A stretch of DNA of 64,000 nt from Laetmonice hystrix (taxonomy: Eukaryota). The position numbers and the translations under genes were made by a program. Positions within the stretch are counted from its first letter, which is position 1, and each line of letters starts with the position of its first letter. The stretch covers positions 38,504,001 through 38,568,000 of the forward strand of contig OZ249436.1 in the NCBI GenBank assembly GCA_965235115.1, in the 5' to 3' direction. The notes beneath the pieces were generated by a model, which saw nothing but the letters and a program-made list of their open reading frames with translations, was not told the origin of the DNA and searched no databases. Below, one piece after another: positions 1 to 64,000 of the stretch.

Positions 1-1645
1 TGTTTTCATCTCATTACCTCTCCGCAGACCGGATAGTTGGGTTTGTTGTCACACTGACAATATCCAACAGTTTCTTGTTATCATCTCATTACCTCTCCAC
101 AGACCGGATAGTTGGGTTTGTTGTCACACTGAAAATATCCAGCTTCTTGTTACCATCTCATTACCTCTCCACAGACCGGATAGTTGGGTTTGTTGTCACA
201 CTGAAAATATCCAACAGTTTCTTGTTATCATCTCATTACCTCTCCACAGACCGGCTAGCTGGGTTTGTGGTCACACTGAAAATATCCAACAGTTTCTTGT
301 TATCATCTCATTACCTCTCCACAGACCGGATAGTTGGGTTTGTTGTCACACTGACAATATTCAACAGTTTCTTGTTATCATCTCATTACCTCTCCACAGA
401 CCGGATAGTTGGGTTTGTTGTCACACTGACAATATTCAACAGTTTCTTGTTATCATCTCATTACCTCTCCACAGACCGGATAGCTGGGTTTGTGGCCACA
501 CTGAAAATATCCAACAGTTTGTTGTTATCATCTCATTACCTCTCCACAGACCGGATAGTTGGGTTTGTTGTCACACTGACAATATCCAACCGTTTCTTGT
601 TATCATCTCATTACCTCTCCACAGACCGGATAGTTGGGTTTGTTGTCACACTGACAATATCCAACAGTTTCTTGTTATCATCTCATTACCTCTCCACAGA
701 CCGGATAGTTGGGTTTGTTGTCAAACTGACAATATCCAACAGTTTCTTGTTATCATCTCATTACCTCTCCACAGACCGGATAGTTGGGTTTGTTGTCACA
801 CTGAAAATATCCAACAGTTTCTTGTTACCATCTCATTACCTCTCCACAGACCGGATAGTTGGGTTTGTTGTCACACTGAAAATATCCAACCGTTTCTTGT
901 TATCTTCTCATTACCTCTCCACAGACAGGATAGTTGGGTTTGTTGTCACACTGAAAATATCCAACAGTTTCTTGTTATCATCTCATTACCTCTCCACAGA
1001 CCGGATAGCTGGGTTTGTGGTCACACTGAAAATATCCAACAGTTTCTTGTTATCATCTCATTACCTCTCCACAGACCGGATAGTTGGGTTTGTTGTCACA
1101 CTGACAATATCCAACCGTTTCTTGTTATCATCTCATTACCTCTCCACAGACCGGATAGTTGGGTTTGTTGTCACACTGACAATATCCAACAGTTTCTTGT
1201 TATCATCTCATTACCTCTCCACAGACCGGATAGTTGGGTTTGTTGTCAAACTGACAATATCCAACAGTTTCTTGTTATCATCTCATTACCTCTCCACAGA
1301 CCGGATAGTTGGGTTTGTTGTCACACTGACAATATCCAACAGTTTCTTGTTATCATCTCATTACCTCTCCGCAGACCGGATAGTTGAGTTTGTTGTCACA
1401 CTGACAATATCCAACAGTTTCTTGTTATCATCTCATTACCTCTCCACAGACCGGATAGTTGGGTTTGTGGTCACACTGAAAATATCCAACAGTTTCTTGT
1501 TATCATCTCATTACCTCTCCACAGACCGGATAGTTGGGTTTGTTGTCACACTGACAATATTCAACAGTTTCTTGTTATCATCTCATTACCTCTCCACAGA
1601 CCGGATAGTTGGGTTTGTTGTCACACTGAAAATATCCAACAGTTT
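1..1645 (+). repeat. 75-bp minisatellite (~22 copies) spanning a splice acceptor plus exon start
   Basis: Unit TTTCTTGTTATCATCTCATTACCTCTCCACAG|ACCGGATAGTTGGGTTTGTTGTCACACTGA(A/C)AATATCCAACAG. Confidence 0.97.
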
Positions 1646-1663
1646 CTGGCAGGACGTAAAGCA
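1600..1663 (+). CDS. Putative late exon of an unidentified upstream gene
   Basis: Strong acceptor CTCTCCACAG then DRIVGFVVTLKISNSFWQDVK; either stops at TAA 1665-1667 or splices at GTAAAC (1664). Confidence 0.45.
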
Positions 1664-4900: not shown

Positions 4901-5568
4901 TGCGCACTGCACTCGCCTGTATTCAATTGACCGACATGCCTTTCGGTCGGCCCGCGGCCTCTTTGGCTGCGTCTTCCATTTTGTTGTCGGTGCTTATTGG
5001 AGTGTCTCTTTGGGCCTCGGAAATTGATTTGGCGTCGCCAAAGGTACAGCGCCGCCCTTGCGAGGAAGATGTTCTATTATTCTAGCTTCCCTACGACCCT
5101 AACCATGTCCGCAGGCCGGTTTCGATCAATACACCATTTAGATCCGATCCCATTCAGAGAGATACATGTCACTGGGCTGATAACGGACAGAAACAATTAT
5201 AAACACATGAGCAGGGTATAGGGTCTAGTTCGCACGTTGATGGGTGCAATTTCCAAGAAGTTGGATAATGGAGTTTTCGGTTTCGGAGAATGCTAGGCGT
5301 AACTTTTCACCTTAATTGTCTACAAACAAAGTAAAAACCGAAGTAGGTCACGTGACGTCCCCGCGTGCAAAACCGCGCCATAACATATAGGCCTATTCCG
5401 GAATTTGTAGAATTGCAGATATCGCTAAGTGAATTAGTGATATCAAGAAATGAAATAAAAATATCACCAATTCCGGAATATTATGTTAAATCGGCTTGCC
5501 ATAGGTCTAGGCCTAGGTGCCAACCATGCGCCCAAAGTTATCGCAGTCTATAATAGTGGAGCAGTGCT

Positions 5569-9429: not shown

Positions 9430-9472
<43 letters not shown>

Positions 9473-16423: not shown

Positions 16424-16497
16424 ATGCTGCATATCGGGGACTTTATTTGTCTGTATTGTGAAAATACGACTGGCTACGTCTACAGTGACAACAGCAG
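16424..16497 (+). CDS. ITPR: ITPR-like exon 1
   Basis: MLHIGDFICLYCENTTGYVYSDNS; in-frame TGA just upstream; donor GTAGGT. Confidence 0.85.
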
Positions 16498-18158: not shown

Positions 18159-18216
<58 letters not shown>

Positions 18217-48200: not shown

Positions 48201-51200
48201 TGAGTGTACCCTCCTGTTACTCAACATCCAGGGTTGTTATACGTGAGTGTACCCTCCTGTTACTCAACATCCAGGGTTGTTATACGTGAGTGTATACCCT
48301 CCTGTTACTCAACATCCAGATTTCGACTGGACAGGTTTCGACTGTTCATGGAATCTTCAACAGTAAAGTTAATGTGAGTGTACCCTTCTGTTACTGTGAA
48401 TGCACTGCCAAAACGAATCCTTCTTACAGGACCTGACGAGCTACGAGTCGGACGAGTTGGTCATGAAGTCGCTTACTGTACTCAGTAACTTCTTCTCCTC
48501 CGAGGCCGGCGTCTTCGATATTATTACTCGTTGTCAGGTAACAGTGACTAGTATACTGATATACGATTATATTATATAAATTCTCACATTATTATATAAT
48601 ATCATAATGATTTATGTGATGCAATGTATCAGTATTAGTCTGTGTCTGTTGGGACTATTACTAAGCAGCAAAATCGACGGTCCCCATATATTAGGCCTTT
48701 AATATGATTAATGAAAGAGCTTGTCTACAAACCTGTGTGTTTCTACCCCAGCTGATGACAAGCCCAGAGATGATCGCTTTACACAATCTGACTGAGGCAC
48801 AGATTTCGACTGTTCAGGCCCTCTTCAACAGTAAACTTAACTCGCAGCAAGCCCAGGAAATAGTAGAAACACTGAACGACTTAAACAGGTATGCAAACGA
48901 TAATTTGTCAATTAATTGACCATTTTCGTATTTAGCGCTAACTATTTTATTTCTTTTTATTTCTTTTTTTTCATTATTCAGTTTCGTTAGTTCTTTTATC
49001 TTATTTTTTGTTTTTCTTTCTTGCCTTCTTTCTTTGTTTCCTTCGTTCTGTGTCTGCTTGTCTGTCTGTTTGCCTTTCTTTTCATTGGTTAATTCCTTTT
49101 TTTGCATTTTCTCGCACTTCTTTTTAAGCTTGTACGACAAGGGCGACCACGAAACGACAAACTTTGTGGCACAAAACATTGTTGTCAACAATGGTAAGTT
49201 AAACTTGACCAGACCAGAAAAGGCATTGTTTATTTCCCTTGAATGGACTAGAATTTTGCACTGTTGTGGCAGAGATGATGTGATTATTCCTGCTATAGAC
49301 CCAAAGCTTTCTCTTTGTAGGTGTACTTGATCTCCTCTTCACAATGATACTTCAAGACGTCGACCAATCACTAGAGGTACATTGATCAGATAATTATGAA
49401 TGACTGGGGAGAGTACGTACATGCCGTTGAAATGGTCACTTTTTACTTCAGAAGCGCGCGTCAGAGCTTTCTTGCTCTCGCCTGGTATGAATGTGTGACT
49501 TGTGCTGCCACCTAGCGTTAAGGCTTGAAACTAACCAGTGTGTTGTATTCAAAACGATGACAGCCAAGATCTTGGTCCTTGTTTAATGGGTTCATTTAAA
49601 TAAAACTTTTTATGTGGCTTACCATTTCAGCCAGCTGTCACCAAAAAATATTATTTAAAATAACCGCGCCTCCGCACCACTTTCGAAATTTTCTTCATGC
49701 CAAAAACCGGGATTTTTTTGGGGCCTCATATAGAAGTTCCTAATACTCTACCGCATTCAAAAGCTGATAATTGTATGGGACACAATTACATCATTTTAGC
49801 AGGATGCAATTGGGCAGAGAATTTATTCATTAACTTCTGACATATTAAAACTTTCTGTAACATTGATTCGTATATATTAAGGTTAATGCAACATTTTATC
49901 CCCATGTTTCTGATTTCCTCAATGTGAATAGCACCAGTCAAGTATGGCTCAGGAGATCATCGATACAAGTCTGGAGTTGTTGATGTCGGTGTCTAGCCAG
50001 AACGGTCTGGTGCAGAACTTGATCTTTGAAAACTTGGAGAAGTTCCTCTATGTTCGGAGCTCCGGGACGGTGTGGGCCCTGGTGCTCATCCACGTATGTA
50101 TATTATGGCAGAACTGACACATGGCCCTGAACACTGCATCATGGAGTCTTGTATTCCGTAACTCCTTATTCCATATATTTTATAATAGGCATCATGTGTG
50201 CAACAAATATTATAGAATCTATACCGTCACCTTGGTCTTATCTTCAAACCCACCCAAATATGTGCAAACATGTCTTTTTATTTTTTATTTTTATTTCCAA
50301 GGAGATTAGGCCCTCTACAAATGCTATATATATCCCTAAGTGACATGGCCACTTTAGGGCTTAGGGAGTGAGCAGTCGGAGATAACTCGCCCTGCCTGGC
50401 TACGTGCTCTTTCGTTATTGAAATAACCATATGACCAGTCGCTTACGAGGACGGATTTTCAAATTAGGTGCTCAGTTCTAGAGAATTCGGCTCAGTAACT
50501 GCAGTCTACAGTGATACCAACTAGAAGTATATATCCGACCTAGCCAGAACCCAAGAATCCGGCGACTCCCTGCAGGAAAAATAAGGAGACAGCCAGGGAA
50601 GCCACTCTACACGGTTTAGAGGCTGGGAAGATATTACCACTTTTGGGACAAAATATTCCCGAATAATTAAAACAATTTTTATAGATATAGGAACAGACTT
50701 TAGAGTTAGAAAATATGTTCTTGATGTAGTGGGTGGGAGCTCTCTTTTAAAAATGTACTTCCGGTTGCAGCAGACGAGCCAATCAGAAACTTGTGTTAAC
50801 CGTAAAGAGGCATTTCGGTAGAAAGTAATAAAAACAACTTCCTTTGCTGTTTTGGTGATGTGATCTTTCGTTGAAACTGATTCATAAACAAAGGGCGCAA
50901 GATTGTCGCCATTTCCCGTCAGAAATCAACTTTTCTATACAAGTCCCATTAGACTTGACAGACTTGGTCGCATGCTGTTCTGACCGTGGCCAAGCAGGGA
51001 TGGGAAGGAAGCATGTGTTCTTCCAGGGTTTAGTTTATAGAAGTTCTACGTTTATATGCAAGAAGCCTATCCGTCACCTATGTCTGTTGTCTGTGCGACG
51101 TCAGAAGATTGGGGCGTTGACAAAACCCAGTTTTACTGAAAATTATTTTGGGCCTAAGCTTTTAAGCGTTTAATCATAATCAGAGATTAAAAAATAATAT

Positions 51201-54200
51201 TATTGTCTGCAGTGGGACAGGATTAGAATTGGAAAAGGTGTCCATGGACCCCTCTTATTTAAAGATGGGAGCACCCCCCCCCCCCTTACAATTTTAGAGT
51301 CCTAGAATAACAATCATACGGTATATAAGCCGGTGCCATTGCATTTACGTTAAGAACCAACTACAAAGACAAACACACATCTATAGGCCTAACCTGCATG
51401 AACAACCGTTTGACAGGTGTTCCGTGGAAGTATCGGTCGGTGCCTGAAGGTGCAGCCTCGTCACATCCAACAGATCGTCAGGCAGGCAGGATGGTGCAAA
51501 GAGAAAGCACCAGAAATCGTCGACTTCCTGCGGAACCTCGTCAAGTGCAACAGTGTCATCATCAAGAGAAACCAGCAACTGGTACTGCGCAATCTCATGA
51601 ACCAGTTCAAGTCGGCCGGTTACGTCATGGACCTCACTGCCAACCAAAGGTGATTGACGTGTCCCACTTAACCCGAGAAACACCTAGTAGAAACCACTGC
51701 CGTTCTGCCGCCAATTAACCGGTCCCTCAGGCTGTTCAGAATTCGTACAGAAATCAATAGATCTTAGCTGTGATTAACTGAACTTCCGTTTTCTGCCTGC
51801 CCTCACACAGGTATGACATCCTGAAGGGGTTTAGGGGACCTGCACATTGTCGTTATCTGATCGCCCTGGTTGACCTTCTAGCGACCTGTGCTGAGGTGCG
51901 TATATTCCTTTTAACACCAGACTTTCATATGAGTTCAGGGACTTTATTATGGCAATATCATGGATTCTGATGTCGCAAAATTTTCCGTTATTTAACAAAT
52001 ATATCAACAAACACTTACAATGAAATACAGATACAATACGTACGTGTTACCTCACACGGACCGAAAATTGTGATCAATAAAGCAAACTTCAACTGAATTC
52101 CGCCTAGCCTAGGGTCAACTATATCTCTGTACAGTTAGAATCAGACAGAACCAGTTTGTGACAGGAAAATATCCCGCCAAAGCCTTACATAACAAAACAT
52201 CCGGCCCTGGTAATCTCAGCATTGATTAACTCTCATTTCACAGGGCCATATGCGCTACTCGGAATCCATCTGTCAGTCACTGATGACGCTCGAGGAACTG
52301 TTTAAGATTCTGAACAGTTCCGAGATACCGATTGAACACAAGGGACCCTTCGCTCGCTACATCGTGTGGGGATACCTGCGTACAGGGCGTACTGCAACGG
52401 AAGATGGCGTAGATCAACTCGCTCATAACAGGTGACGTCAGCAATTCTCTCGGTCCCTGTCGTCATGCTGAGCCTCAGAGGCAACTTTACGACTTTATCC
52501 AATAAACAGGCTGGTCAGCCGCCAACCAAAATTTGACGTTGTATAAGTTGTATGGATGGCCATAGAAGTAGACGAATATTGGAATATATACTGTAATATA
52601 ATATTTATATGTGTTCCTACTTTAGATTTATGATTAAATGTTTACATTATGTGTGCTGGAGCCAACCACACCCACGCTTTTTTAGAATAGATCGGATTCA
52701 GGAATTTTGGAAAGGGGAGGGGGGAGCGCCATCTTTTCGGCCTTCAGTGACATAAAACATGTCAGTAAAACACATGTTCAGGTAATTTCACAGGAATAAA
52801 GAGGGGGCGCCGCATGCCACTGCTTGCCACCATTTTGCGGAAAGTATATGCATTTATTTCGGGGATTGAAAAAAAAATATCGTCTTTGCTAGGGGTTATT
52901 GTTGATGAATGAGACTAATGACATAAATTAAGTTAGTGCTTACTGTTTTCAGGGACATCTGGCGACATTTAAGAAACATACGGCGGTACATGACGCCCTC
53001 GATCGTCAATACTCTCAAGTCTTGGCAGCAGACAGAGGGCAAACGTCTGCGGTAAGACTTCAACTCAACGTCATCAACTGTTGATTCCCATAAACAAACT
53101 ATTCTGCCGTGAAATGACAAAAGGAAGCAAGTCCAAAAGTTCAAGTTTCGAGACATGGACATAAACAAAGTTGTCTGTACAGTGCAGTTGGATTGACATG
53201 CTTACTTCTGTCATGCGACTGATAGCTTCATAGAAGGATGTTTAGCAGAAATACACCCATCGATAGATAGGGCTTAAACTTCCCTGAATCCAAATTTACA
53301 CTTAAATCGATTTTGGACTTGCTTCCTTTTGTCATTTCACGGTAGTATTGTGAAACGTTTGTAAAACCTTGTTGTTCGCTGGATTAATTCTATCCTAAGT
53401 GTCCGAAAGTCTGACTATAGGAAGAGGAGATTTTGTTCAACAAATCTTGTTGCCCATAATGCCTGATGTCCTTGACATCTCAGATACCGTCGAGACACCG
53501 TCTTCACAGTTCTCGATGTCGAAGGTCACTCCGCCGTCAGGTACGCCCTACAAGGCGGATTCTTACTCGTCCAGGTAAGGGCAGTGTTCACGTGGATGGT
53601 TTATTCTTGGTTACAACTACCGGTCTTCCTGTAAGTTGAATAGATTTGATTAACTATTATTGTATGTCTTCCTGCAGACATTTGTCAGCAAGTTTTATGA
53701 GCCGGATCCGGATCTATTTCCGGCGGAGGGGCAAATCCTGCTGCAGCTGACCAAGTTAATATTGGTAGGTCCAGTGACATGAAATCAGTTTATTAAACAA
53801 GTACAATGGTGTATAGGCCTATTGGGACCAACCATACCCGTGCATTTTTAACAATGGGTCCGCCGGCTTAGTGCATACCACGCTTCCAGGTTAATTTAAA
53901 ACCAATAGAGCTCCAACTTGCAATGCAAAGAATATTAAAGTTGGCTTGCCTTTTCCCAAAAGTATATGAAGGAGGAGGGTTAAGTGAAGCTTTTATATCA
54001 AAAGATTAATTTTTTTTACGTTTTTTAATTATTATTTTCAGCCGTTTGCACAGGCTTGCTTGGGGTTTGCCTCGGAAGTTGGCGAGGTTCGGATTATTGA
54101 CGAAACCGTCACAGCACTTCTGAAGAAACAGGGCAAGACGTCGAAGGTGTGCAACCCGATACTCGCCTGCATGTCTGGCACAATGATCTGATGATCTAAT

Positions 54201-57200
54201 TTAACTTTTAACCTCACATGTATAACACACTTGCTTACACTTTCAAACCAAGGTGCAGAGCGTTTAGTAAATTTCCTGATTTTGAGTGAGAATCTGAATT
54301 TTGGTGAGAAATATAACTCTGTGTTTCGTTATGTACTATACTCCCTACAGCTTTGTGACGACCTCCGTGAGCAAGGCGAGGTGACGAAGAAACTAGTGCA
54401 GATGGGGGAAGCCATCAAGGTGATTGTCTTCCAGTCTGGCTGTCAGATAGTCTTCCAGGCTGGCTGTCAGATTGTCTTCCAGTCTGGCTGTCAGATTGTC
54501 TTCCAGTCTGACTGGCAGATTGTCTTCCAGTCTGGCTGTCAGATTGTCTTCCAGTCTGGCTGTCAGATTGTCTTCCAGTCTGGCTGTCAGATTGTCTTCC
54601 AGTCGGGCTGTCAGATTGTCTTCCAGTCTGGCTGTCAGATTGTCTTCCAGTCTGGCTGTCAGATTGTCTTCCAGTCTGGCTGTCAGATTGTCTTCCAGTC
54701 TGGCTGTCAGATTGTCTTCCAGTCTGGCTGTCAGATTGTCTTCCAGTCTGGCTGTCAGATTGTCTCCCAGTCTGGCTGTCAGATTGTCTTCCAGTCGGGC
54801 TGTCAGAGCTGGTAAAGTGAAAGGGGGAGTCAGCAAATCCTGAATTCGTGAGCTCGAAATCGAGTTTTACAGTTGTCGTTTCGAGACTTATCGTGTACCT
54901 AAGTTTCAACTTCCAATACCCAACACAGATCTGCAATGAACTCTTTTATTCCATTGACTTTCAGAAAAAGGGAGACAAGGATCTAGAGGAGGAGGACCTA
55001 AACGAACGATTCCAGCTCTATGGGAATAACATCAGGTCCTACCTTAACGACCAGAAAACGGTAGCATCTGTACTGGGTATTTCAAGTCGCCGCGCGAAAC
55101 ACATGAGTAAGACGCAACGTGATTCATTTGCATTACTATTATTCTATTTTTATTCTCCCCCATTTATATTTTTATACTATTTACTTACTTAGTATATAAC
55201 AATGTTGTTAGGCTACTCTAGTATGTATCCCAGTGTCCATAGAGAGGAATGGATCCTGTCTCATTCACTGTCGCATTGCATTCACAATGTTGACTAGAAC
55301 AGCTACACGCCTGGGTGTTCGGGTTACTGTTTGATTTTTGTTTAGATCCATGTTTAAACCAATAAAGTAAGGCTTGCAACTGTTTCCTAAGATATGGGTC
55401 AGTCAGCATCTCTAAACATATGCCTTTATTTATCTTTAATTCTTTCCATAACTACATGTAGTCACAGTTTCTTCTTCACGTTTTGTTCCTCTCGCATTTA
55501 CTACTGTTTCTTTGTCCGGCTTTTGACGAACACCACTACCTTCCCCGCTACATGTTTGTGATGTCCCTGATTGTTTTCAGGTCTTAACTTACAAATTTTA
55601 CTATCTCAATTGGTAATATCTCGAGCTACTCCATAATTCACAATACTTGCAGACTATGTGAAGCCAGATGAAGAAGCCAAGCTCCCTCTAGAACCGGTAT
55701 TCCAACAACACGTGAAATGTTTCGTGACGTCACACAAGAACCTAGGCGAACGCTACAAGAGGGCACTGAAGCTAATCGACCAACTTGAGTAGGCGGTTCA
55801 CTGAATCATTCATTGTACTGTTGTACTGACCATCGTATCCTAGCCTGCTAAATCAAAATCAGAATCAGATCAGTCATTCGAAGTATTACGGTGTCCATTT
55901 CTCCTTACTAGACTAACTTGTGTGGGCTATAAATACTCTTCTCTATTCTTTCAGTCATTTTTCAAGAGTATGCCTATTTACATAATTTATTTATAGTCAC
56001 ATTTTCTTTAACATTATATCAATCTTGTAAATCTCCTATAAATCAGTTGTGAATACAGTGACTACAGGCCAACATCAGGGGGCTTTGCAATAACAAAGTG
56101 ACCCTGTAATTGTGAATGTTTTTTCGGCCTCCCCCCCTGGAAGATATCGGAAGTGGGGTTGCCCCCCACTCTGAATATATTCTCGCTCTTATATAAGGTG
56201 AATACAAGCTGGTTTTCTTTGATTTAAAAAAATCATATATTTATACATGCCACGTTTTTCCAGTCCTATTTGTGTAACTTGGCAATTCTGGTTTTTGTGT
56301 GTAGGATATCAAGCAGACTATACAAGCAGACAGCGGAACCGGAACAGGAGAAAGTCGACATCCGGTCACTCCAGATTCTGCGTGCTCTAATCTACAACCA
56401 GGTTGTTCAACTTCCTGATGACTGGACTGACAATTCTGGCAAGCATACAAAGTGGGTATTAAAAACTATATCCGTCATGAAAATAAATCTCAAGATGAAA
56501 ACCTTTTCGTTGATGCGATATAGATATTTGAAGGCACAATGGAAACCACAGTTATCAGCAACATTATTTCAATCAGCTTCGATCTTTTCTTGGAGAAGAA
56601 GAGAGAACAAGCAGTTCCTATGATATAGCTCCCTATAGACTCGGTTGAGAGAAATGGGATATAGGCCTATTCTAATTTCATAGTCCTCTAAGACAAAGGG
56701 CAATGCGACATATACAGGCAGTGAGGTGCCATTATCAGTAGGTTTCATGTAGGCCTATATAGACAGTATACTGGTAGGCCTACATTTAACCCGATCTCTC
56801 ACTAGGTTATAACGAACAGTTTAAGTGACAGTTTCACCTCGGATAGTCATAATAACTCGGATAATAGCTCGGATAATAGACAGTCGTCCCCTAATAGGAA
56901 CCTGCCAATAGGCAAGTTTGTTTAGTGCCTAAGTCTGAATTGAGTGTTTGAATTCTACATCCAGTTAGTCGTATAGCGGTACCCTACACCCTGCAAGTGT
57001 GCAGCACTGACAATCAGACATTTAACATCGTAATTGAATGATCAGACTTTCTTTGTGACTGAGGCTTGTCTTTCCAGTAGCAGTAATCTAATAGAGCAAT
57101 GACAGAATGAGCCATAATAAAAGGATTCCAGATCACGGCGTGCATGTACTTGTTTCTGCAGGACCCTGAAGGTGGTAAAGAGCATCCAGGACACGTACTG

Positions 57201-60200
57201 TGATTACAACGTCATCCGGAAGGTAATGCCCCTCTTGTCTCGGGAGAACCAGGTCCTCAAGCGGGAAGTCCTGGCCCTCATGGATATGATGTTGTTCAAC
57301 GCCAACACCAACATCCAGGTACCCATAGAATCTCAAGTACAACACCACTTACTATGCCTCAGGGAGCTGGACAGTAGGAACATCTCAAAACTTTAACCTC
57401 ACAGGGATACGATTACAGAAAAAAAGAATGCAGGTTTTATATTTGAATATCTCTATAAGAACCAGAGGGTAAAATTAATATAGGAAATATTTCCCCATCT
57501 TTCTGCGTCCTTGCCAGGCTTTAAAAACGAATGCAATGAATTAATAAAAAATACCTCTCTGTATATCCGGAAAGGTCGAAGGGAGTTTCGAGTGATTGTG
57601 CATAATCATATGTAGCAACGACTTTTCATCATATTTTAATACGTAATTTTATTCTATCTGTACCAGAGGTCGCTACTGCAGTATTTTAGCGGCACAAGTG
57701 AGGAGATGTTCTTCATGTATGTTCGTCAACGCCTTCATTCAGCAACGCTGGCGCTCAAAGAAAAGTAACTAAAAACGTCATTTCTCATTACGGCTCCCCT
57801 TAGGAACCAAGCCTAGTGCTTGTTCAGGCACTAGGCTTGAACAAAACTCCTAAGCTTCTAAGAAAATGGAATCATTTGAACATCCTCAGTGCTGTCTTCA
57901 AAATGTTGAAATATCTCCCGTTTGAAGGGACATGACTTGTATATAGAAGTCTTTTGCCATGAAGGTACCACGAGACGTCTACCAACGTCTGTACTCATTG
58001 GAATACATTTATCAATATGCAAAGATTTACTTCAAACCTCGGGTACATACATATGGTATCCGATGTATAATAGACCCAAACCAGATATATAGGATCATGA
58101 GTAATCAAAAGAACGCATCAAATCCTACCTCGTGAATCCCATGCCAACTCGGCGTCACGTGATTCTAGGGTATCTGTTTTACCAGGCGGTCCATGGAAAA
58201 TCAACGAAAGCAAAGGCAGAAATGGAAAGAGATGAAAGAGGCACACCTTAAGGAACAGGCGGCTAGGCTGCAAGAAGCCAAGGTTCTTCACCACTGTTAT
58301 CAATATGAAAATCTTGATTTTCAAAATAATAGTATTATCGTTATTTCAAATAACATGATATCATCCTTTACATAAAAACGTCGTAATATATTTATCCTCC
58401 TTTGTTATAATTCATAGTTAACTGTAGCTTTGCTAATTACTATCACTTCACTTTTATCTTAATTTTTCTCATTAGTGTATATTTTGAAAGAGTAATAAAA
58501 TGCTGATGGCGCTATTTTCTTCTAGGAACATGAAGAAGCGGCCAAAGTTCAAGTGAAGGTTACAAACAGGAAGCTTAAACGTATCCAGCCATACCTGAAG
58601 TTCCTGGCTAACCAAAGGATGGTGCGTAACATCACGAATGAAACCATCGAGGCTGAGGTAAGACTCTTCTTGATTCTGTCATACAGAAAGTTATTCAATC
58701 AAACAGGGACAGGCAGGTCGCATGAATTGGATTTCAGCGTTTCAAACTTCAGCTGTGGAAGAAAATTACTTTATCCACATCCAGCTAACCGAATATGAGA
58801 GTAACAAAGAAATCAATCAATAAAAATTATTACAAGTGGGCTAATCCTCTTGATGTCTGACGTTGAGCAGTATTCGGACAACTTGGCATTAATCGATGAA
58901 GAGATTGGCGTAGATCAAAGCACTGACAACCCGGAAGAGGATATTGGGCTCATCTTCAGGGTCATAGCGGGCCTCTGCGACGGACAAAACCGAGACTTAC
59001 AGGTTGACATCTAAAGACATCACTCTTGTCCTTGTGGCGAAATCATCAAGTTCTTTATGATCCTACTTCCCTTTTAAATACAGAATAACAATGAAAAGTG
59101 TCTAAGGAATATAACTTACAAGGAACGATCTAGACATATCTATCGTCCACCAGTTAATATGAGAATAATATTGATTGATTTTTTTATTAAAATGGTTGAG
59201 GGGATGTTCCCTGAAACTCCATAAGGGAGAGCGTCACTTTGACCCATGGCCTAGCTCGGCGCCTGACGTATAATACTGAGGCGTATATATGTTTTATGCG
59301 GACGCAGGACTACCTTCGAGAGCAGCCAGACAACGTTCGAACTGTGAACCTAGTGAGTGAGCTGTGTCAGTTCCTGGCCGCCCACTACTCGGCCGTCGAT
59401 GCTGAGTCCATCAGTCTCATCTCACTGATCTTTCGGACACTCAATGAGATATGTCAGGTAAAACTTCTACAGGGCCCGGTCTTTCGAAATTGCTTAAGCT
59501 TCAGGCTTCTGATTGGCTGGTCTGCTTAGACCAGCCATTCAAAAGCGTTAAGCTAAAGCAAGACCCAAGAGTATCATGCGTTGCACCTGTCTTGTCCATG
59601 GGCGTCGCTAGGATTATTTCCAGGGGGGTGAGCACACAACCTGATATTGAGGGTGGAGCCGTGGGCGGCGAAACCATCCACCGCGAGCGCCAAAGGCGCA
59701 ATTTTAACACATTTGTGACGTGCCATATCAAAACCAGGCAGAATTCGCATGTGTGAAGTTCTAAGCTAGGGGGAGGGGTCAAAAGGTCAAAATGGCCGAT
59801 TTTGGTGATTTTGAGATTTTTCCAGAAATCAAAAGCCAAACATGTCATGTTTCACATTAGAAAGTATAATTGTCGAAAACCCGGTCTATGTTGATAAAAA
59901 ATGGATTATTTGGGCTTGTTTCACATGACTAATTTTGATGCTGAAAAAAATCAACATTCAGGATCAAAGCTGTTTTTTAGCATTTTTTTTCCAAAATCAG
60001 CAACTCATAAACTGTCACACTCAAAGTTCGATATCTTCAGATATATTTGACACATCACATTCATTGTGGTGTCATTTTGAAGCTTGTGACCTGTACGTTT
60101 TGATTATTCAATAAAACACACATCGATTTTTGCCGACTTCTGCCTGGTTTTGGCATGGCCCCTCACATTTGATTTTCCCCATATTTTAAAGGGGGCATGT

Positions 60201-63200
60201 GCCCCCCTTGCTCCGCCCCCTCGCGACGCCCCTGGTCTTGTCTATATGTGCGGGGCATAATACGCTTTGTGAGAGGCTAAATGTTATTTCTTCATCATGT
60301 CTCACATTTTTATTGTGTTTTAAGTGCAACATTTGCATTAGCTATATTTAATCGAAAGTGCTCTTTTGGCAGAAATAACCAAACAAAACGCTGACTGTTT
60401 GCAGGGAAACCAACCAAATCGGACGGTACTCGTCAACAACAAGATTGTCGACTACATCAACTTTCTGCTGCGAATCGGTCATTTTGATGGATGCAGTGCC
60501 GAACAGGTATCGTAGGCTACTTGTGGTCGGTCGATTTCAAAACTCCCGCACCGTAGCTTACCGAGGAAAAATAAGAGAGTCAGGAAACCACTGTGAAATA
60601 CGGGGAAATGTTTGACTTCTTCAGGAAAATAGCGTGTTTCCGGCTGAACATTTGAGAATTTGTTTCTGTAGGTGATAGAGTTGCGATCTATGATTGCGAC
60701 ATTGCTGAGGTCCCTGACCGAGGAAAACTGCCCCGAGGCCGAGATACTGACCAAGGTGAGAAGGGAAGTGGTGAAGGGATTACAAACATATTATGTTCCT
60801 TGGCAAATCGACTCATGCGAAATCAACAATAAACTCTAGTTATTCTCACAAGGTTCATCGAACATTTTCAAGAATTTTCTGAGTAAGGCATCCTGACCCC
60901 AGACCTCCGTAGTCCAGTAGAGGGGTGTCGTATTTTACCCTTGCCGTGGGGTTCTATACACCCTCCATCTGTCTGAAGAGATAGCGAGATGACCTTAGAG
61001 ACCCCCTACCTACGAACCTTTCACCTTGCTCTGTGCTGTTGGTCACCTCTATAGGAACTCCGGGACACTTTAGACTTGGAGGCCATCTTCAGTATCATGT
61101 CCGCCTCGCGAGCTCTCTACCAGGTAGGGTTTTTTTCAAATATACGCAGCTAATGTCGTTTATATGTGGTATCGATATTTTTGAATTCATTCATCACGTA
61201 CGTATACATATTTAACTCTCACAATATCCAGGACCAGCAGGCCAGCGCTGAGCACCTCATACTGGGATATGAACAACCGCCCCCGTCTGGCATGTTCTGC
61301 TTTCAAAAGGTAGCGTTTAAATGTTACAATGCATTCTTTGTATGTAAAATATTTACCAATTAAAATACTTATCATAATGCTTAGAAAAGTATTAATCCTA
61401 AATCTTGTATACATTATTTTCAGGGAGAAAGTAAACAAATACGCGATTCTGCAAATGAAGTTGGGTTGACTCTGTATCTTGTAATCGCGAGAATGCGAGA
61501 TACTGACCAATCCGTCGAGAAACAAGGTATAGGGTTTGAATGTTTTATTTGTGGTTTAGGCATCACTCATGGTTCTGGCAGTATAGGCCTAGTTTGTAAA
61601 CGATCTGACCCATTACAGAAGAGCCTTTAAAAGCATGGATCTTATAAAGTCATGTACATGTAGGCCTATATGAAACTACTAATAACGTCATGCCTGCCCC
61701 TTTATAGTACTTTATGAATATTCCACCGGTCATCTAATACGTGTAATTCCATGTGTCTGTTAGGTCTAGTGGACCCAGGGGTGAAGAAAGGATATCTCTT
61801 CTACAAGCATCAATGTTACTCTGTCGAGGTGGTCAAGGGCAACCATCTCCAAAGGGCTCACTTCCCAGTCCGCCATAAGGTGAGCCCATACACGTGTCGA
61901 CATTTTATCCGTTAGGAGGAGAGCTTGGATTTGAAAAAAATGCCTTTCATAATTAAGCCTATGGCATTATACAAATGTACACGTTTCTGAAAACTTAAAA
62001 TATAATTAACTGAGATATCTCTAAAATAGGAATTGCCCGCCATGAAAGTCTGTGACATTATACAAATGTACACTTTTCTAAAAACGTAAATATCATAATT
62101 GAGAGAGATAGCTCTAATGTAGGAACTGCTCGCCATGAAAGCCTATGACATTATACAAATGTACACTTTTCTAAAAACGTAAATATCATAATTGAGCGAG
62201 ATAGCTCTAATAAAGGAACTGCTCGCCATGAAAGCCTATGACATTATACAAATGTGCACTTTTCTAAAAACGTAAATATCATAATTGAGAGAGATAGCTC
62301 TAATGTAGGAACTGCTCGCCATGAAAGCCTATGACATTATACAAATGTACACTTTTCTAAAAACGTAAATATCATAATTGAGAGAGATAGCTCTAATGTA
62401 GGAACTGCTCGCCATGAAAGCCTATGACATTATACAAATGTACACTTTTCTAAAAACGTAAATATCATAATTGAGCGAGATAGCTCTAATAAAGGAACTG
62501 CTCGCCATGAAAGCCTATGACATTATACAAATGTGCACTTTTCTAAAAACGTAAATATCATAATTGAGAGAGATAGCTCTAATGTAGGAACTGCTCGCCA
62601 TGAAAGCCTATGACATTATACAAATGTACACTTTTCTAAAAACGTAAATATCATAATTGAGAGAGATAGCTCTAATGTAGGAACTGCTCGCCATGAAAGC
62701 CTATGACATTATACAAATGTACACTTTTCTAAAAACGTAAATATCATAATTGAGCGAGATAGCTCTAATAAAGGAACTGCTCGCCATGAAAGCCTATGAC
62801 ATTATACAAATGTGCACTTTTCTAAAAACGTAAATATCATAATTGAGAGAGATAGCTCTAATGTAGGAACTGCTCGCCATGAAAGCCTATGACATTATAC
62901 AAATGTACACTTTTCTAAAAACGTAAATGCCAGTTTAAAACCTGCGTTATATTTTGTGGCGTGCAGGACCTCCTAAGGGAGGAATTGATCATGCAGGTCA
63001 AGTGGCACATTGACCGTTCCTCGCCGTCCGGTAAGCTCAGGGACCTGGTACTGTGGGCACGAGACATCATCCACGACGTCGGCTACCAGAAAAAGATCCG
63101 AGGGAACCCTATCACTAAACAACTGGCTGCCCGATGGTAACGATCACCTTCAGAGGGGCTAGACAATGATTTCAACTGGAAGATTTTATTGTTTCAACAT

Positions 63201-63493
63201 AGAGATCTATTAGGCGGAGTTAGCAACACCAATAAAACAGAAAGAGATTCTGATGAATTAGCCCATTTAATCTAACAATCATAATTGCGCAAGGCAGATT
63301 TGGATAGCAATTGACGTTTAAGCATGATGACTATTGAGAACTGTGAAAACTATTGTTTCAGGGCGATATGGAACTACGCTTGTATCCTGATCAGCTTGAT
63401 CATCCAAATCATCATGCTGTTGACATGGCAGTCGCCTCTGGTCGTCGACCAAGTGCCGTCAAACGCCACCCATCTCCCGATTGAGTTGTACAG
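16424..63493 (+). CDS. ITPR: Divergent inositol 1,4,5-trisphosphate receptor-like Ca2+-release channel, 59 exons traced, 3'-incomplete (runs off window after TM1)
   Basis: Spliced translation shows IP3R-family motifs in the expected order: MLHIGDFICLY (cf. FLHIGDICSLY), QNRYK, LKYGDIIQLRH, VVQLFHRDLEAYL, VRLRHMTTRLYL, NRQKLLRNL, RKNALYLA, IKDNRQIV, FLDLLSVLC, LVDLLATCAEG, LCDGQNRDLQDYLREQ, TLNEICQGN, SVEVV, then a hydrophobic TM1. All 58 internal introns are GT-AG with matching phases. Confidence 0.93.
17206..17453. mobile_element. MITE (CAGGGCCGGATCCA TIR, TSD AGTGTG)
   Basis: TIRs plus 6-bp direct flanks. Confidence 0.8.
18019..18092 (+). CDS. ITPR: ITPR-like exon 2
   Basis: STNEWLYVHNGQDRDKPERISNVE; phases 2/1. 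Confidence 0.8.
18163..18222. repeat. (GA)n microsatellite
   Basis: Direct observation. Confidence 0.95.
18276..18400 (+). CDS. ITPR: ITPR-like exon 3
   Basis: AVTFQISTQNRYKLTKKYRKLL...NAK. Confidence 0.85.
18649..18735 (+). CDS. ITPR: ITPR-like exon 4
   Basis: ASSLAEQQDNRKEQKRLEGKNLKYGDIIQ. Confidence 0.9.
18851..18928 (+). CDS. ITPR: ITPR-like exon 5
   Basis: LRHVLNNRYINVSVTDTSAVDKDKLK. Confidence 0.9.
18916..20460 (+). repeat. ~65-75-bp minisatellite (~23 copies) filling ITPR-like intron 5
   Basis: Unit AGACAAACTCAAGGGTAGTAGGTCCCTATATGTCAGTGAATCTGCCCATGTCAAACCTTTCCAATAG; starts in the last bases of exon 5. Confidence 0.95.
20502..20582 (+). CDS. ITPR: ITPR-like exon 6
   Basis: VHLSFYGTKNAQFKILPSYKVKVEGEQ. 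Confidence 0.9.
20814..20911 (+). CDS. ITPR: ITPR-like exon 7
   Basis: IENLDQVVFESIKSPGSYLHTSDPYQVSPGIY. Confidence 0.85.
21069..21165 (+). CDS. ITPR: ITPR-like exon 8
   Basis: SEVNLATTQARFTIVQHRTQDPNDPFINRYLW. Confidence 0.85.
21395..21482 (+). CDS. ITPR: ITPR-like exon 9 (MIR)
   Basis: ASSVVQLFHRDLEAYLVAEGVFGDVPMED. Confidence 0.9.
22429..22638. mobile_element. MITE (AAGCCCCAGTCACAC TIR)
   Basis: Inverted termini AAGCCCCAGTCACAC / GTGTGACTGGGGCTT. Confidence 0.7.
23150..24290. repeat. 74/77-bp minisatellite (~15 copies) in intron 9
   Basis: Unit TTGGCCTGTCATTACTTCTCCTTGCCTGGTAAATCCACCAACCAGAGTAAAACTCTGCCAGCCAGCAACACCAC. Confidence 0.95.
24915..25022 (+). CDS. ITPR: ITPR-like exon 10 (MIR)
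   Basis: VHLRVREQNHADTRTLYPPRSGITFWQVESERSLVD; phase 1/1. Confidence 0.9.
25035..27704. mobile_element. Composite nested DNA-transposon remnants (ACGAT-rich long inverted repeats)
   Basis: 25040-25140 is an imperfect inverted copy of ~27560-27670; inner TIR pair AAGGCCCTTATCCA at ~25559 and ~27538; CAAGATGGCCGCC tandem block at ~25790-26230. Confidence 0.6.
27776..28519. mobile_element. MITE with ~80-bp imperfect TIRs
   Basis: AAACCAGTGA...AGAGCAAGACCAGCCTTCATAT.GGAGCCCTATA mirrored at ~28444-28519. Confidence 0.75.
28841..28986 (+). CDS. ITPR: ITPR-like exon 11 (MIR)
   Basis: GMPIRWKQKVRLRHMTTRLYLSV...VFRLHSIVQ. Confidence 0.9.
28963..29346 (+). repeat. 32-bp minisatellite (~12 copies) spanning the exon 11 donor
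   Basis: Unit TTCAGGTTGCACTCCATCGTACAG|GTTAGACA. Confidence 0.95.
30026..30110 (+). CDS. ITPR: ITPR-like exon 12
   Basis: YVDRDEILLGNHARVEHPLTETWLHAER. Confidence 0.9.
30721..30806 (+). CDS. ITPR: ITPR-like exon 13
   Basis: DTYARLRLTSSEGTSMASLQWDKADLTQ. Confidence 0.85.
31059..31333. mobile_element. Palindromic MITE (TACGGAGCCCTGTTGGGGACATGA TIR, TSD TGAAAC)
   Basis: Perfect 24-bp TIR and 6-bp direct flanks. Confidence 0.85.
31491..31616 (+). CDS. ITPR: ITPR-like exon 14
   Basis: ISWIKRRPYPDALTIQKVD...FVAGMIPFIRDIIPQ. Confidence 0.85.
31802..31852 (+). CDS. ITPR: ITPR-like exon 15
   Basis: ITNTRKVTTKKAMAICT; good acceptor and donor, phase 0/0. Confidence 0.75.
32087..32332. mobile_element. 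MITE (TTACTTTTCCACCGTGAGCAAGG TIR)
   Basis: Inverted termini. Confidence 0.75.
32449..32529 (+). CDS. ITPR: ITPR-like exon 16
   Basis: ALGELDDFLIVNGKPEKNRQKLLRNLN (IP3-binding RQKLxR motif). Confidence 0.9.
32820..33610. mobile_element. Tc1/mariner-like non-autonomous element
   Basis: TA|CAGGGTGTCCGAAAAAA left end; degenerate TTTTTTGGGCCAACCCG right end. Confidence 0.5.
33790..33975 (+). CDS. ITPR: ITPR-like exon 17
   Basis: VLELLIEVLKTP...GRSRKNALYLARCIPFFLTQLGLE. Confidence 0.9.
33923..34612 (+). repeat. 77-bp minisatellite (~9 copies) spanning the exon 17 donor
   Basis: Unit ...CTACTTGG(C/T)CAGGTGTATCCCCTTCTTCCTAACTCAACTCGGACTGGAG|GTGAGTTCACGTGTACTCAGTTTA... Confidence 0.95.
35193..35700 (+). 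repeat. 29-bp minisatellite (~17 copies) ending at the exon 18 acceptor
   Basis: Unit GAGGTCTGGTAACATTTGTTTTACACCAG; the last copy ends TTTGTTTTACAG|GGC. Confidence 0.93.
35701..35823 (+). CDS. ITPR: ITPR-like exon 18
   Basis: GGVGVHCCKMLIDLIKDNRQIVDRITSEQLDIFVDMLKKHK. Confidence 0.9.
36177..36281 (+). CDS. ITPR: ITPR-like exon 19
   Basis: KSQFLDLLSVLCVCNRTALPDNQLRIATALLGQDQ. Confidence 0.9.
36505..36618 (+). CDS. ITPR: ITPR-like exon 20
   Basis: EVLFHIEIKTYESLAVGDELCISTDGRRTWLPLHKFAY. Confidence 0.85.
36630..36797. repeat. Degenerate (CT/CTGT)n microsatellite
   Basis: Direct observation. Confidence 0.85.
37143..37220 (+). CDS. ITPR: ITPR-like exon 21
   Basis: KNYSDYSEELFIFLEHQLELYRNLSY. 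Confidence 0.85.
37517..37649 (+). CDS. ITPR: ITPR-like exon 22
   Basis: RRNEKVLKVM...LPGSLRANLLGVLT. Confidence 0.85.
37846..38904. mobile_element. Non-autonomous element (CCC(A/T)GATAA TIR, AT flanks) with TTGGGCCAACG subrepeats
   Basis: Termini CCCTGATAA / TTATCTGGG; many internal GTTGGGCCAAC motifs; possibly CMC/EnSpm type. Confidence 0.65.
38092..38464. mobile_element. PIF/Harbinger-type MITE nested in the previous element
   Basis: Perfect TIR GGCCCCGTTTCATAACTAA; 3-bp TSD CAG; uninterrupted host motif visible at ~37951-37990. Confidence 0.88.
39101..39210 (+). CDS. ITPR: ITPR-like exon 23
   Basis: FYIDYGRECCTVRTTPFNYVYHDIDSRKENYGRLDL. Confidence 0.8.
39478..39586. repeat. (CT)n microsatellite
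   Basis: Direct observation. Confidence 0.95.
39985..40101 (+). CDS. ITPR: ITPR-like exon 24
   Basis: IESDIDEKYPGLREWLLTVLDETPFMIAQPVSNSIFIQQ. Confidence 0.8.
40379..40514 (+). CDS. ITPR: ITPR-like exon 25
   Basis: VLRLVECLINYGHLSAEEDLQRLLPLITRLADGRHDAPFP. Confidence 0.85.
40991..41099 (+). CDS. ITPR: ITPR-like exon 26
   Basis: ITEYTSFEKHH...RFKKNESQEAIVKAKI. Confidence 0.85.
41378..41432 (+). CDS. ITPR: ITPR-like exon 27
   Basis: ALNVVELLLKRTFNRRLQ. Confidence 0.85.
41651..41772 (+). CDS. ITPR: ITPR-like exon 28
   Basis: FVLSVFKHTMEKE...YELMRREFEHRDF. Confidence 0.75.
42824..43114. mobile_element. TTAA-target MITE (Kolobok-like AG..CT ends)
   Basis: TTAA|AGTGACACCCCAAATTCCT ... AGGAATTTAGGGTGGCACT|TTAA. 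Confidence 0.75.
43173..44090. mobile_element. CACTA/EnSpm-like non-autonomous element
   Basis: CACTGTAAA / TTTACAGTG termini, TA flanks, many TACAG/CTGTA subterminal motifs. Confidence 0.75.
44655..45235. mobile_element. MITE (CAGGGGCGGATTCAG TIR, TSD CTAAG)
   Basis: TIRs plus exact 5-bp TSD; internal GACAAAAGTGG repeats. Confidence 0.8.
46317..46410 (+). CDS. ITPR: ITPR-like exon 29
   Basis: KPMVTGKLDKLLTKIRRRTVYFDSSLPELLY; donor GTGAGT. Confidence 0.8.
46403..48319 (+). repeat. 43-bp minisatellite (~44 copies) spanning the exon 29 donor
   Basis: Unit GTGAGTGTACCCTCCTGTTCCTCAACATCCAG GGTT(G/A)TTATAC. Confidence 0.97.
48430..48537 (+). CDS. ITPR: ITPR-like exon 30
   Basis: DLTSYESDELVMKSLTVLSNFFSSEAGVFDIITRCQ. 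Confidence 0.85.
48752..48888 (+). CDS. ITPR: ITPR-like exon 31
   Basis: LMTSPEMIALHNLTEAQISTVQALFNSKLN...LNDLN. Confidence 0.85.
49129..49193 (+). CDS. ITPR: ITPR-like exon 32
   Basis: LYDKGDHETTNFVAQNIVVNN. Confidence 0.8.
49321..49376 (+). CDS. ITPR: ITPR-like exon 33
   Basis: GVLDLLFTMILQDVDQSLE. Confidence 0.8.
49932..50093 (+). CDS. ITPR: ITPR-like exon 34
   Basis: HQSSMAQEIIDTSLELL...SQNGLVQNLIFENLEKFL...VLIH. Confidence 0.85.
51417..51649 (+). CDS. ITPR: ITPR-like exon 35
   Basis: VFRGSIGRCLKVQPRHIQQIV...VIIKRNQQLVLRNLM. Confidence 0.9.
51811..51895 (+). CDS. ITPR: ITPR-like exon 36
   Basis: YDILKGFRGPAHCRYLIALVDLLATCAE. Confidence 0.9.
52244..52431 (+). CDS. ITPR: ITPR-like exon 37
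   Basis: GHMRYSESICQSLMTLEELFKIL...HKGPFARYIVWGYL. Confidence 0.9.
52953..53051 (+). CDS. ITPR: ITPR-like exon 38
   Basis: DIWRHLRNIRRYMTPSIVNTLKSWQQTEGKRL. Confidence 0.8.
53101..53349. mobile_element. MITE with ~35-bp TIR
   Basis: CCGTGAAATGACAAAAGGAAGCAAGTCCAAAA / TTTTGGACTTGCTTCCTTTTGTCATTTCACGG. Confidence 0.8.
53484..53574 (+). CDS. ITPR: ITPR-like exon 39
   Basis: YRRDTVFTVLDVEGHSAVRYALQGGFLLVQ. Confidence 0.8.
53678..53764 (+). CDS. ITPR: ITPR-like exon 40
   Basis: TFVSKFYEPDPDLFPAEGQILLQLTKLIL. Confidence 0.8.
54042..54146 (+). CDS. ITPR: ITPR-like exon 41
   Basis: PFAQACLGFASEVGEVRIIDETVTALLKKQGKTSK. Confidence 0.75.
54351..54419 (+). CDS. ITPR: ITPR-like exon 42
   Basis: LCDDLREQGEVTKKLVQMGEAIK. 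Confidence 0.75.
54423..54806 (+). repeat. 24-bp minisatellite (16 copies) starting just after the exon 42 donor
   Basis: Unit ATTGTCTTCCAGTCTGGCTGTCAG. Confidence 0.97.
54965..55106 (+). CDS. ITPR: ITPR-like exon 43
   Basis: KKGDKDLEEEDLNERFQLYGNNIRSYL...KHM. Confidence 0.8.
55653..55788 (+). CDS. ITPR: ITPR-like exon 44
   Basis: YVKPDEEAKLPLEPVFQQHVKCFV...KLIDQL. Confidence 0.85.
56305..56451 (+). CDS. ITPR: ITPR-like exon 45
   Basis: ISSRLYKQ...DIRSLQILRALIYNQVVQLPDDW. Confidence 0.85.
57162..57318 (+). CDS. ITPR: ITPR-like exon 46
   Basis: TLKVVKSIQDTY...REVLALMDMMLFNANTNIQ. Confidence 0.9.
57667..57764 (+). CDS. ITPR: ITPR-like exon 47
   Basis: RSLLQYFSGTSEEMFFMYVRQRLHSATLALKE. Confidence 0.9.
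58186..58282 (+). CDS. ITPR: ITPR-like exon 48
   Basis: RSMENQRKQRQKWKEMKEAHLKEQAARLQEAK. Confidence 0.75.
58526..58657 (+). CDS. ITPR: ITPR-like exon 49
   Basis: EHEEAAKVQVKVTNRKLKRIQPYL...TIEAE. Confidence 0.75.
58871..59002 (+). CDS. ITPR: ITPR-like exon 50 (RIH-associated)
   Basis: ...DIGLIFRVIAGLCDGQNRDLQ. Confidence 0.9.
59308..59457 (+). CDS. ITPR: ITPR-like exon 51 (RIH-associated)
   Basis: DYLREQPDNVRTVNLVSELCQFL...TLNEICQ. Confidence 0.92.
59597..60234. mobile_element. hAT-like non-autonomous element (8-bp TSD GTCTTGTC)
   Basis: CATGGGCGTCGC / GCGACGCCCCTG termini with exact 8-bp TSD. Confidence 0.8.
60405..60506 (+). CDS. ITPR: ITPR-like exon 52
   Basis: GNQPNRTVLVNNKIVDYINFLLRIGHFDGCSAEQ. 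Confidence 0.9.
60672..60755 (+). CDS. ITPR: ITPR-like exon 53
   Basis: VIELRSMIATLLRSLTEENCPEAEILTK. Confidence 0.88.
61055..61123 (+). CDS. ITPR: ITPR-like exon 54
   Basis: ELRDTLDLEAIFSIMSASRALYQ. Confidence 0.82.
61232..61309 (+). CDS. ITPR: ITPR-like exon 55
   Basis: DQQASAEHLILGYEQPPPSGMFCFQK; phase 0/0, could be optional. Confidence 0.65.
61424..61526 (+). CDS. ITPR: ITPR-like exon 56
   Basis: GESKQIRDSANEVGLTLYLVIARMRDTDQSVEKQ. Confidence 0.85.
61764..61879 (+). CDS. ITPR: ITPR-like exon 57
   Basis: LVDPGVKKGYLFYKHQCYSVEVVKGNHLQRAHFPVRHK. Confidence 0.9.
61955..62928. repeat. 93-bp minisatellite (~10 copies) with 279-bp higher-order period in intron 57
   Basis: Unit AAAGCCTATGACATTATACAAATGTACACTTTTCTAAAAACG...CTCGCCATG; variant GAGCGAG/TAATAAAGG in every third copy. 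Confidence 0.95.
62967..63136 (+). CDS. ITPR: ITPR-like exon 58
   Basis: DLLREELIMQVKWHIDRSSPSGKLRDLVLWARDIIHDVGYQKKI. Confidence 0.9.
63362..63493 (+). CDS. ITPR: ITPR-like exon 59 (first transmembrane helix)
   Basis: AIWNYACILISLIIQIIMLLTWQSP...IELY; donor GTAGGT. Confidence 0.88.
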
Positions 63494-64000
63494 GTAGGTG
63501 TAGACCAAAGGCTTATAGCGTGTTCTTCAGATCGAGTTGTACAGGTAGGTGTAGACCATAAGCTTATCATGTTCTTCAGATCGAGTTGTACAGGTAGGTG
63601 TAGACCATAAGCTTATCGTATGTTCTTCAGATCGAGTTGTACAGGTAGGTGTAGACCATAAGCTTATAGCGTGTTCTTCAGATCGAGTTGTACAGGTAGG
63701 TGTAGACCATAAGCTTATCGCATGTTCTTCAGATCGAGTTGTACACGTAGGTGTAGACCATAAGCTTATCATGTTCTTCAGATCGAGTTGTACAGGTAGG
63801 TGTAGACCATAAGCTTATCGTATGTTCTTCAGATCGAGTTGTACAGGTAGGTGTAGACCATAAGCTTATAGCGTGTTCTTCAGATCGAGTTGTACAGGTA
63901 GGTGTAGACCATAAGCTTATCATGTTCTTCAGATCGAGTTGTACAGGTAGGTGTAGACCATAAGCTTATCGTATGTTCTTCAGATCGAGTTGTACAGGTA
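63480..64000 (+). repeat. 49-51-bp minisatellite (>=10 copies) spanning the exon 59 donor
   Basis: Unit ATCGAGTTGTACAG|GTAGGTGTAGACCATAAGCTTATC(GT)ATGTTCTTCAG. Confidence 0.95.

Follow-up and report, generated by a model that had tools for sequence, protein, structure and literature searches.

Do minisatellites gather at exon borders, and if so, does something act on the splice junctions themselves? The question is raised by a 64-kb window (G000:C1:38504001-38568000; by window we mean this whole stretch of DNA), which lies roughly central on a 73.8-Mb contig in an animal genome of 627 Mb and holds ten arrays with at least nine copies. The original prediction placed eight of ten arrays on an exon border and proposed a process aimed at splice junctions, with RNA-templated repair among its candidates and intron gain as a possible outcome.

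On the plus strand, an ITPR-like (IP3-receptor-like) gene identified by homology and spliced alignment extends with its exons 1-59 over 16424..63493, and nine further exons lie past the window end. Our 59-exon model, with which the predicted exon numbering agrees, was built by reading the sequence with three one-base corrections; its 6497 nt translate without a stop into 2165 aa, collinear with mollusc ITPR-like proteins (P0001/P0040/P0010) at 32-41% identity. Judged from the collinear homologue match, the Ins145_P3_rec, MIR, RIH, and RIH-associated domains are present in the expected order, and the PF08454 match falls at the position of exon 51. Independently of the model, spliced alignment to a profile of 25 homologues recovered 56 of the 59 exons, and exon 1 by its donor only. 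The same alignment missed exons 29 and 42; the introns flanking these two are common to five to eight of eight family members. This check is partly circular because the window gene model served to train the splice-site matrices.

A PF08454 search returned nine ITPR/RyR-family loci in the genome, four of them on C6. For three well-conserved ITPR-like paralogues the best matches are proteins of Capitella and Owenia, which makes the animal probably an annelid. The minus strand carries a second ITPR-like gene (G000:C1:38,603,006-38,639,773), tail to tail with that of the window. The window also contains (TTC)n and CT-rich microsatellites at 9318-9581, 36635-36797, and 39478-39585, the second of which begins 17 nt past the exon-20 donor. 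Decayed reverse-transcriptase-like frames at ~13300-14050, in the gene-free stretch before the ITPR-like gene, have the look of what we take to be a non-LTR element.

Seven of the eight predicted border arrays held up, all of them in the ITPR-like gene and read on its plus strand. Five include the exon end together with the donor: a 67-bp array of ~23 copies (18916-20448; 13 nt of exon 5, donor after 18928), a 32-bp array of 12 copies (28963-29346; last 24 nt of exon 11 and 8 nt of intron, donor after 28986), a 77-bp array of nine copies (33923-34612; last 53 nt of exon 17 and 24 nt of intron, donor after 33975), a 43-bp array of ~44 copies (46403-48319; beginning 8 nt inside exon 29, donor after 46410), and a 50-51-bp array of 17 copies (63479-64000 and on to 64341; last 15 nt of exon 59 and intron). 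A 24-bp array of 16 copies (54422-54807) starts just after a donor, at base 3 of intron 42, and a 29/43-bp array (35193-35699) stops at an acceptor, 1 nt before exon 18, which starts at 35701. Introns 5 and 29 are nearly all array, as had been stated (97% and 95%). Two further plus-strand arrays complete the gene: a 74-bp array (23149-24301) well inside intron 9, not at a junction and with 613 nt between it and the acceptor, and a 93-bp array (61955-62928), overlooked in the original prediction, which makes up 90% of intron 57 and stops 38 nt short of the exon-58 acceptor.

The eighth border array did not fare as well. It consists of 22 copies of a 75-bp unit at 1-1647, is unique in the genome, has no strand assigned, and had been attached to an acceptor of an upstream gene; in the 50 kb upstream we found no plus-strand gene leading to it. 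The closest recognisable plus-strand exons on that side, 45 kb off, resemble COX5A. A minus-strand reading, with an acceptor, a 56-nt segment (candidate exon 1645-1590), and a donor, scores slightly above the plus-strand acceptor reading, both being putative, and Pfam returned no match for the peptide of either strand. The frame of segment 1590-1645 is open and carries a Cys...PVCG pattern that we take to be Kazal-like; a search for partner exons of this segment found none, and it could be an untranslated exon of an upstream LRR gene. On the minus strand, 3 kb before the window, there is a long leucine-rich-repeat coding region without interruption, whose start resembles a signal peptide (L002 ~5370-6925).

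Most units had been described as a mini-intron plus a micro-exon copy. This was overstated: among nine in-gene arrays scored, those of exons 11, 17, 29, and 59 have both a donor-like and an acceptor-like site in every unit, and the description stands for these four. Units of the exon-18 and exon-42 arrays have no donor-like site, and GT is intact in 0 of 20 copies of the exon-5 array, which also has an internal break at ~19750-19787 that repeats its own 3' flank. At the other extreme, 43 copies of the exon-29 array were scored, of which 39 have GT intact and 38 score at least as high as the real donor. Directly behind this array, in intron 29, plus-strand positions 48331..48372 hold a 42-nt copy of part of exon 31 (48799-48840), 86% identical (E 5e-8; score 54, that of the best other exon being 19). 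To judge from this alignment, it is a templated insertion of an exon-31 piece. A donor-like remnant of the 43-bp unit comes after the copy.

In the window gene, seven of ten arrays with at least five copies span a junction or lie within 10 nt of one, against 2.2 expected (P=0.001), in a count that includes one array just past the window and for a window that was itself chosen for the feature. Introns are short in this family (medians of 223-360 nt in eight ITPR-like genes), so about 30% of random placements fall within 30 nt of a junction and a null model is needed. We collapsed each array to one unit and compared it with all placements of the same length that were not wholly exonic, using the real intron lengths. 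The test genes were seven ITPR-like paralogues and 11 ABCC genes on nine contigs, annotated by homology; the window gene was kept out to avoid selection. Excluded from the counts were arrays in introns beside an exon scoring <20, wholly coding repeats, an ABCC intron with alternative exon copies, and the weak-match ABCC block at C1:39.84M, and the ITPR/RyR-family loci on C13 and C3 lie outside the gene set. One array (paralogues g4 and g5) and one two-copy repeat (ABCC genes a8 and a9) are counted twice, being shared by conversion.

The enrichment that had been predicted against shuffled positions was recovered in these 18 genes. Junctions are spanned by 57 of 160 arrays against 27.6 expected, a number reached in 0 of 200,000 simulations, and 96 of the 160 lie within 30 nt (48.9 expected). 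Donors account for 31 of the spanning arrays and acceptors for 26. The seven ITPR-like paralogues contribute 40 spanning arrays out of 111 (20.0 expected), with 75 within 30 nt (35.3 expected), and the 11 ABCC genes contribute 17 out of 49 (7.5 expected, P=4e-4); in the latter, the spanning class alone is enriched, and the 0-30 nt classes show no excess. The surplus persists among arrays at most 100 nt from a junction (57 spanning vs. 37.8 expected), under a GC-matched null (57 vs. 31.0), with 6 nt cut from both array ends (47 vs. 27.4), and with high-scoring exons only (43 of 123 vs. 19.4). It also persists in introns of at most 250 nt (31 of 58 vs. 22.0, P=0.009), with an enrichment of 1.4-fold in short introns vs. 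2.7-fold in long ones. Across all 19 genes, 16 are above expectation and three are not, one ABCC gene having 0 of 11 arrays near a junction where 1.0 was expected; the total is 62 junction-spanning arrays in 746 introns, 26 of them acceptor-side. In a microsatellite control of only 19 repeats, five lay within 30 nt (2.4 expected, P=0.08). We conclude that the junction bias exceeds chance and extends to other genes, and that it goes beyond a consequence of short introns.

The bias rises with copy number. Two-copy duplications fit the expectation (6 of 46 spanning vs. 6.9; 13 within 30 nt vs. 12.8), as does a tolerant, partly overlapping two-copy set obtained by self-alignment (10 of 25 spanning vs. 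8.8), so that the null is calibrated, although both sets are small and may stem from another pathway than the long arrays. From 1.0 for two copies, the near/far rate ratio climbs to 2.3 for 3-5, 3.0 for 6-11, 5.2 for 12-23, and 7.7 for at least 24 copies, and the difference between two-copy repeats and those with at least 12 copies is significant (P=7e-6).

Arrays peak within ~30 nt of both donors and acceptors, but a process aimed at the splice point itself is not supported. The offsets of array ends to that point range from about -72 to +30 and only 7 of 104 fall within 2 nt; the exonic share of the unit ranges from 0 to 100%; the units are unspliced exon plus intron DNA; and two-copy duplications are unbiased. 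Arrays have no fixed end position relative to the splice point, and they affect donors and acceptors to about the same extent. Splice-site strength at array-bearing junctions compared with the others is 4.3 vs. 3.6 for donors (P=0.057) and 3.1 vs. 3.6 for acceptors (P=0.65).

Two other predicted properties were upheld. Units are mutually unrelated and of local origin: across the blocks compared, 54 of 59 spanning units match nothing else, and the other five match a paralogue or a neighbouring piece. The spliceosome also faces many near-identical decoys, with GT intact in 410 of 460 donor copies and AG in 218 of 234 acceptor copies, while 11 of 59 spanning arrays, that of exon 5 included, are mostly dead or unscored.

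Which of these sites is used was approached with read contigs from four runs, all from one sample and one study, compared over 35660-46450 only, a stretch with exons 5, 11, 17, 42, and 59 outside it. Three runs are DNA-like. The fourth, X4, is RNA-like: though not recorded as RNA, it is treated so here on account of contigs that join exons 19/20 and 25/26. One X4 contig aligns up to 46411 and then goes on with 121 other letters; since it departs from the array despite 39 further repeat-unit bases on offer, it points to use of the first of ~40 exon-29 donors, on the evidence of a single contig and with contigs dropping rare splice forms. From there it would continue into exon 30. The same contig also covers 46190-46316, the end of intron 28, which reads as unspliced intron 28 or as an upstream acceptor at 46191 bringing stop codons.

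Against an assembly artefact, a possibility raised with the original prediction, stands the depth at the end of the 29-bp array: it is 279-357 vs. ~50 in the three DNA-like runs, a multi-copy depth in short-read contigs that makes this array real in short reads. At 35659, run X3 seemed to hold an additional 29-bp unit, which we discounted as an artefact of the border of the compared stretch. In intron 25, ~235 nt at 40661-40895 are present in the assembly and missing from the short-read contigs of two runs, likely a heterozygous indel.

Intron gain found no support. In the ITPR-like family, none of the 80 near-junction arrays occupies an intron that is restricted to one gene, vs. 22 private introns among 417 array-free ones, and array-bearing introns are common to five to eight of eight paralogues; with all 80 arrays in introns that paralogues share, there is no sign of intron gain. 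Among ABCC genes, 2 of 21 array introns and 15 of 258 array-free introns are private. Arrays recur at the same junction in paralogues without significant excess (21 pairs vs. 17.7 expected, P=0.23).

Conversion between paralogues has also taken place at exons. The ITPR-like g4 and g5 have 59% protein identity, with 49-74% in the other 36 exon pairs compared, and share one exon (105 nt; 99% identical over 102 nt) plus the adjoining 39-bp acceptor array. The two loci lie ~200 kb apart on C6 in opposite orientation, at ~6,946,400 (minus strand) and 7,142,900-7,143,600 (plus strand), and the g5 array is chimeric, with shared units plus older units further out. By these alignments, the tract is a gene conversion that covered exon plus array, a single event and between paralogues rather than alleles. 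Two ABCC pairs (C21:22.13M/22.28M and C5:23.89-23.92M) have five more exon-sized conversion tracts, of 94-99% identity between paralogues that are otherwise 65-72% identical. One ends within a few bases of both exon edges; the others include intron ends or a junction-spanning two-copy repeat. Elsewhere, an ABCC1-like gene (G000:C1:36,289,700-36,296,100) has four tandem copies of its 311-nt second-membrane-domain exon, an arrangement that, as we presume, resembles the mutually exclusive exons of insect MRP1.

The explanation that we favour, with roughly even confidence, is that these 'mirage'-type arrays start from position-blind duplication and then grow preferentially beside exons by exon-anchored recombinational repair. 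Ordinary tandem duplications of 10-100 bp would arise at any position, consistent with the two-copy control, and those wholly within an exon would mostly be purged by selection. Junction-straddling ones would be tolerated because the exon-side copy retains the real site and the extra copies fall in the intron. Whole-unit growth would then be far more frequent within ~30 nt of an exon, a pattern that the counts display and for which the likeliest cause would be gene conversion, with strand invasion and template switching anchored in the exon and running into the repeat. The exon may serve as anchor for repair as the best-conserved homology of a polymorphic genome. Spare splice sites would be a by-product, the site beside the full exon being used, in line with the exon-29 contig and the human F7 precedent, and no new introns arising.

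This growth beside exons is supported by the enrichment in independent genes, the copy-number trend, the unbiased two-copy class, the conversion tracts at exons, and the templated exon-31 piece. Passages of PMC2599865 describe change at human minisatellites as largely interallelic conversion, with active ends at hotspots, and part of PMC7615360 gives a two-fold bias to whole-unit insertions for repeats in meiotic hotspots. Against it count the lack of any polarity in how units diverge along 64 long arrays (0.096 on the proximal side vs. 0.095 on the distal side, P=0.98), the fact that conversion of exon plus array is one event, the weaker effect in short introns, the three genes without excess, and the restriction of the ABCC enrichment to the spanning class. 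Only the end unit farthest from the exon shows a slightly higher divergence (0.138 vs. 0.110, P=0.011).

Among the alternatives, the strongest is that arrays grow equally everywhere, while intron interiors are deleted or replaced by mobile DNA and arrays tied to an exon last and enlarge. We consider this doubtful, although it would account for the unbiased two-copy class and for the rise with copy number without a special mechanism, and it predicts the stronger effect observed in long introns. Dispersed repeats fit it as well, as they account for 9 of 26 arrays beyond 100 nt from a junction vs. 6 of 110 nearer ones, and so does the haplotype indel of intron 25. However, homogeneity is the same in near and far arrays (median 91% in both, P=0.75), and between real exon and copy consensus only 4.4% of positions differ (44 of 1006 nt), which gives the near arrays no older look. 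The bias also remains inside short introns, and the ends of many arrays fall close to complete units (25 of 40 near arrays, 15 of 27 far ones) instead of being cut by deletion.

That a transcription- or splicing-linked process (polymerase pausing, R-loops, exon-border chromatin, mismatch repair, or small circles) creates or expands the junction arrays is in our view improbable. Such a process would suit a peak beside donors and acceptors alike and an array density of 19.5 per 100 kb in annotated genes vs. 11.2 outside, where the outside includes unannotated genes. It fits poorly with the lack of an end pile-up at the splice point, with unbiased two-copy duplications, with the missing recurrence excess, and with spanning units that show no G-rich bias of the sense strand (G>C in 27 of 62). 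Since the units are neither mRNA nor lariat copies, a splicing- or RNA-templated origin, as the original prediction had suggested, is not supported; a transcription- or chromatin-linked cause of the expansion bias is possible.

Selection that keeps the arrays because they regulate splicing, or as reserves of new introns or in-frame micro-exons, is very improbable. In its favour, decoy sites are mostly intact and four window arrays have both kinds of site in each unit; yet unit length shows no in-frame excess (divisible by three in 14 of 59 spanning arrays), the one-unit 'mini-introns' of exons 29 and 59 measure 32 and ~37 nt vs. 103 nt for the shortest real intron of the window model, units are unrelated, the array-bearing introns are ancient, and the RNA-like contig takes the first donor. 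An assembly or annotation artefact, or chance, which the share of random placements near junctions and the splice-site models trained on the window gene might suggest, is most improbable in view of a null that collapses arrays, uses real intron lengths, and fits the two-copy class, of the short-read depth at the 29-bp array, and of the patterned variants among units.

Under the preferred reading of growth beside exons, exon edges may be hotspots where repeats expand rather than arise, in this and perhaps other highly polymorphic marine invertebrates, with repair anchored in the exon or in exon-border chromatin. About one intron in 12 of multi-exon genes would then carry a row of decoys, acceptors being affected nearly as often as donors; we put this forward tentatively, at somewhat less than even confidence. 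If true, a lancelet curiosity gains a measurable rule and mechanism, and thousands of natural tests of the choice among identical splice sites become available. The 62 spanning arrays are themselves natural experiments on donor and acceptor choice, and they call for caution in annotation because array copies resemble micro-exons. New here are a measured two-fold bias that depends on copy number, the lack of intron gain in two gene families, and the conversion tract that carries an array. In the literature searched, outside which most subscription papers lie, we found no genome-scale enrichment test of junction-spanning minisatellites.

The class is already known: the arrays are of the same kind as amphioxus 'mirages' and the junction-spanning minisatellites of human F7 and CBS type, and first-donor choice was already tested in human F7. 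Several other systems were compared. Insertion by lariat, reverse splicing, or cDNA is at variance with the few array ends near the splice point and with the wide range of the exonic share. In the human MS32/CEB1 type, as far as partial descriptions go, germline conversion is interallelic and polar to a flanking hotspot; the observations here are one inter-paralogue tract of exon plus array and no polarity of unit divergence. In the Rogers model, as outlined in PMC3087553, tandem genomic duplication of AG/GT-bearing sequence leads to intron gain; it duplicates exon-internal sequence into a new intron, while the worm arrays enlarge old introns. Tandem repeats of plants and green algae are commoner towards intron-exon junctions (PMC3887541), with motifs of 1-50 bp, mostly short simple repeats binned by relative intron position; units with exon sequence and copy number, considered here, are not dealt with in the sections of that paper available to us.

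Human junction VNTRs are of the same kind. The excerpts of PMC1557585 at hand name F7 intron 7 (37 bp), 6-16, CBS intron 13, LMNB2, and PDGF, with the most upstream donor used in F7, LMNB2, and PDGF, and the next two sometimes used too in 6-16 and CBS. As in our arrays, the first unit spans the donor and identical pseudo-sites follow behind. Those cases, as excerpted, are isolated and on the donor side, unlike the 62 spanning arrays counted here, with their acceptor-side members.

Closest of all are the amphioxus mirages, described for Adh3, the globins BflGb6/BflGb9, troponin C, and PGBD5 in the accessible parts of PMC3087553 and PMC3902484 as tandem copies of an exon-intron boundary, on the donor or acceptor side, with normal splicing. 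In Adh3, the same sources give several arrays per gene with unrelated units of 10-72 bp. Mirages were described gene by gene and suggested as a route to intron gain, and their mechanism is called unclear in the relevant portion of PMC3087553. As far as these descriptions reach, our arrays agree with them in units that span boundaries (five window arrays and 62 in 19 genes), are derived locally, and mostly keep GT/AG. They differ in that the worm families show no intron gain, that arrays merely abutting a junction are included, and that, in another phylum, 746 introns were counted against a null and revealed a two-fold bias rising with copy number.
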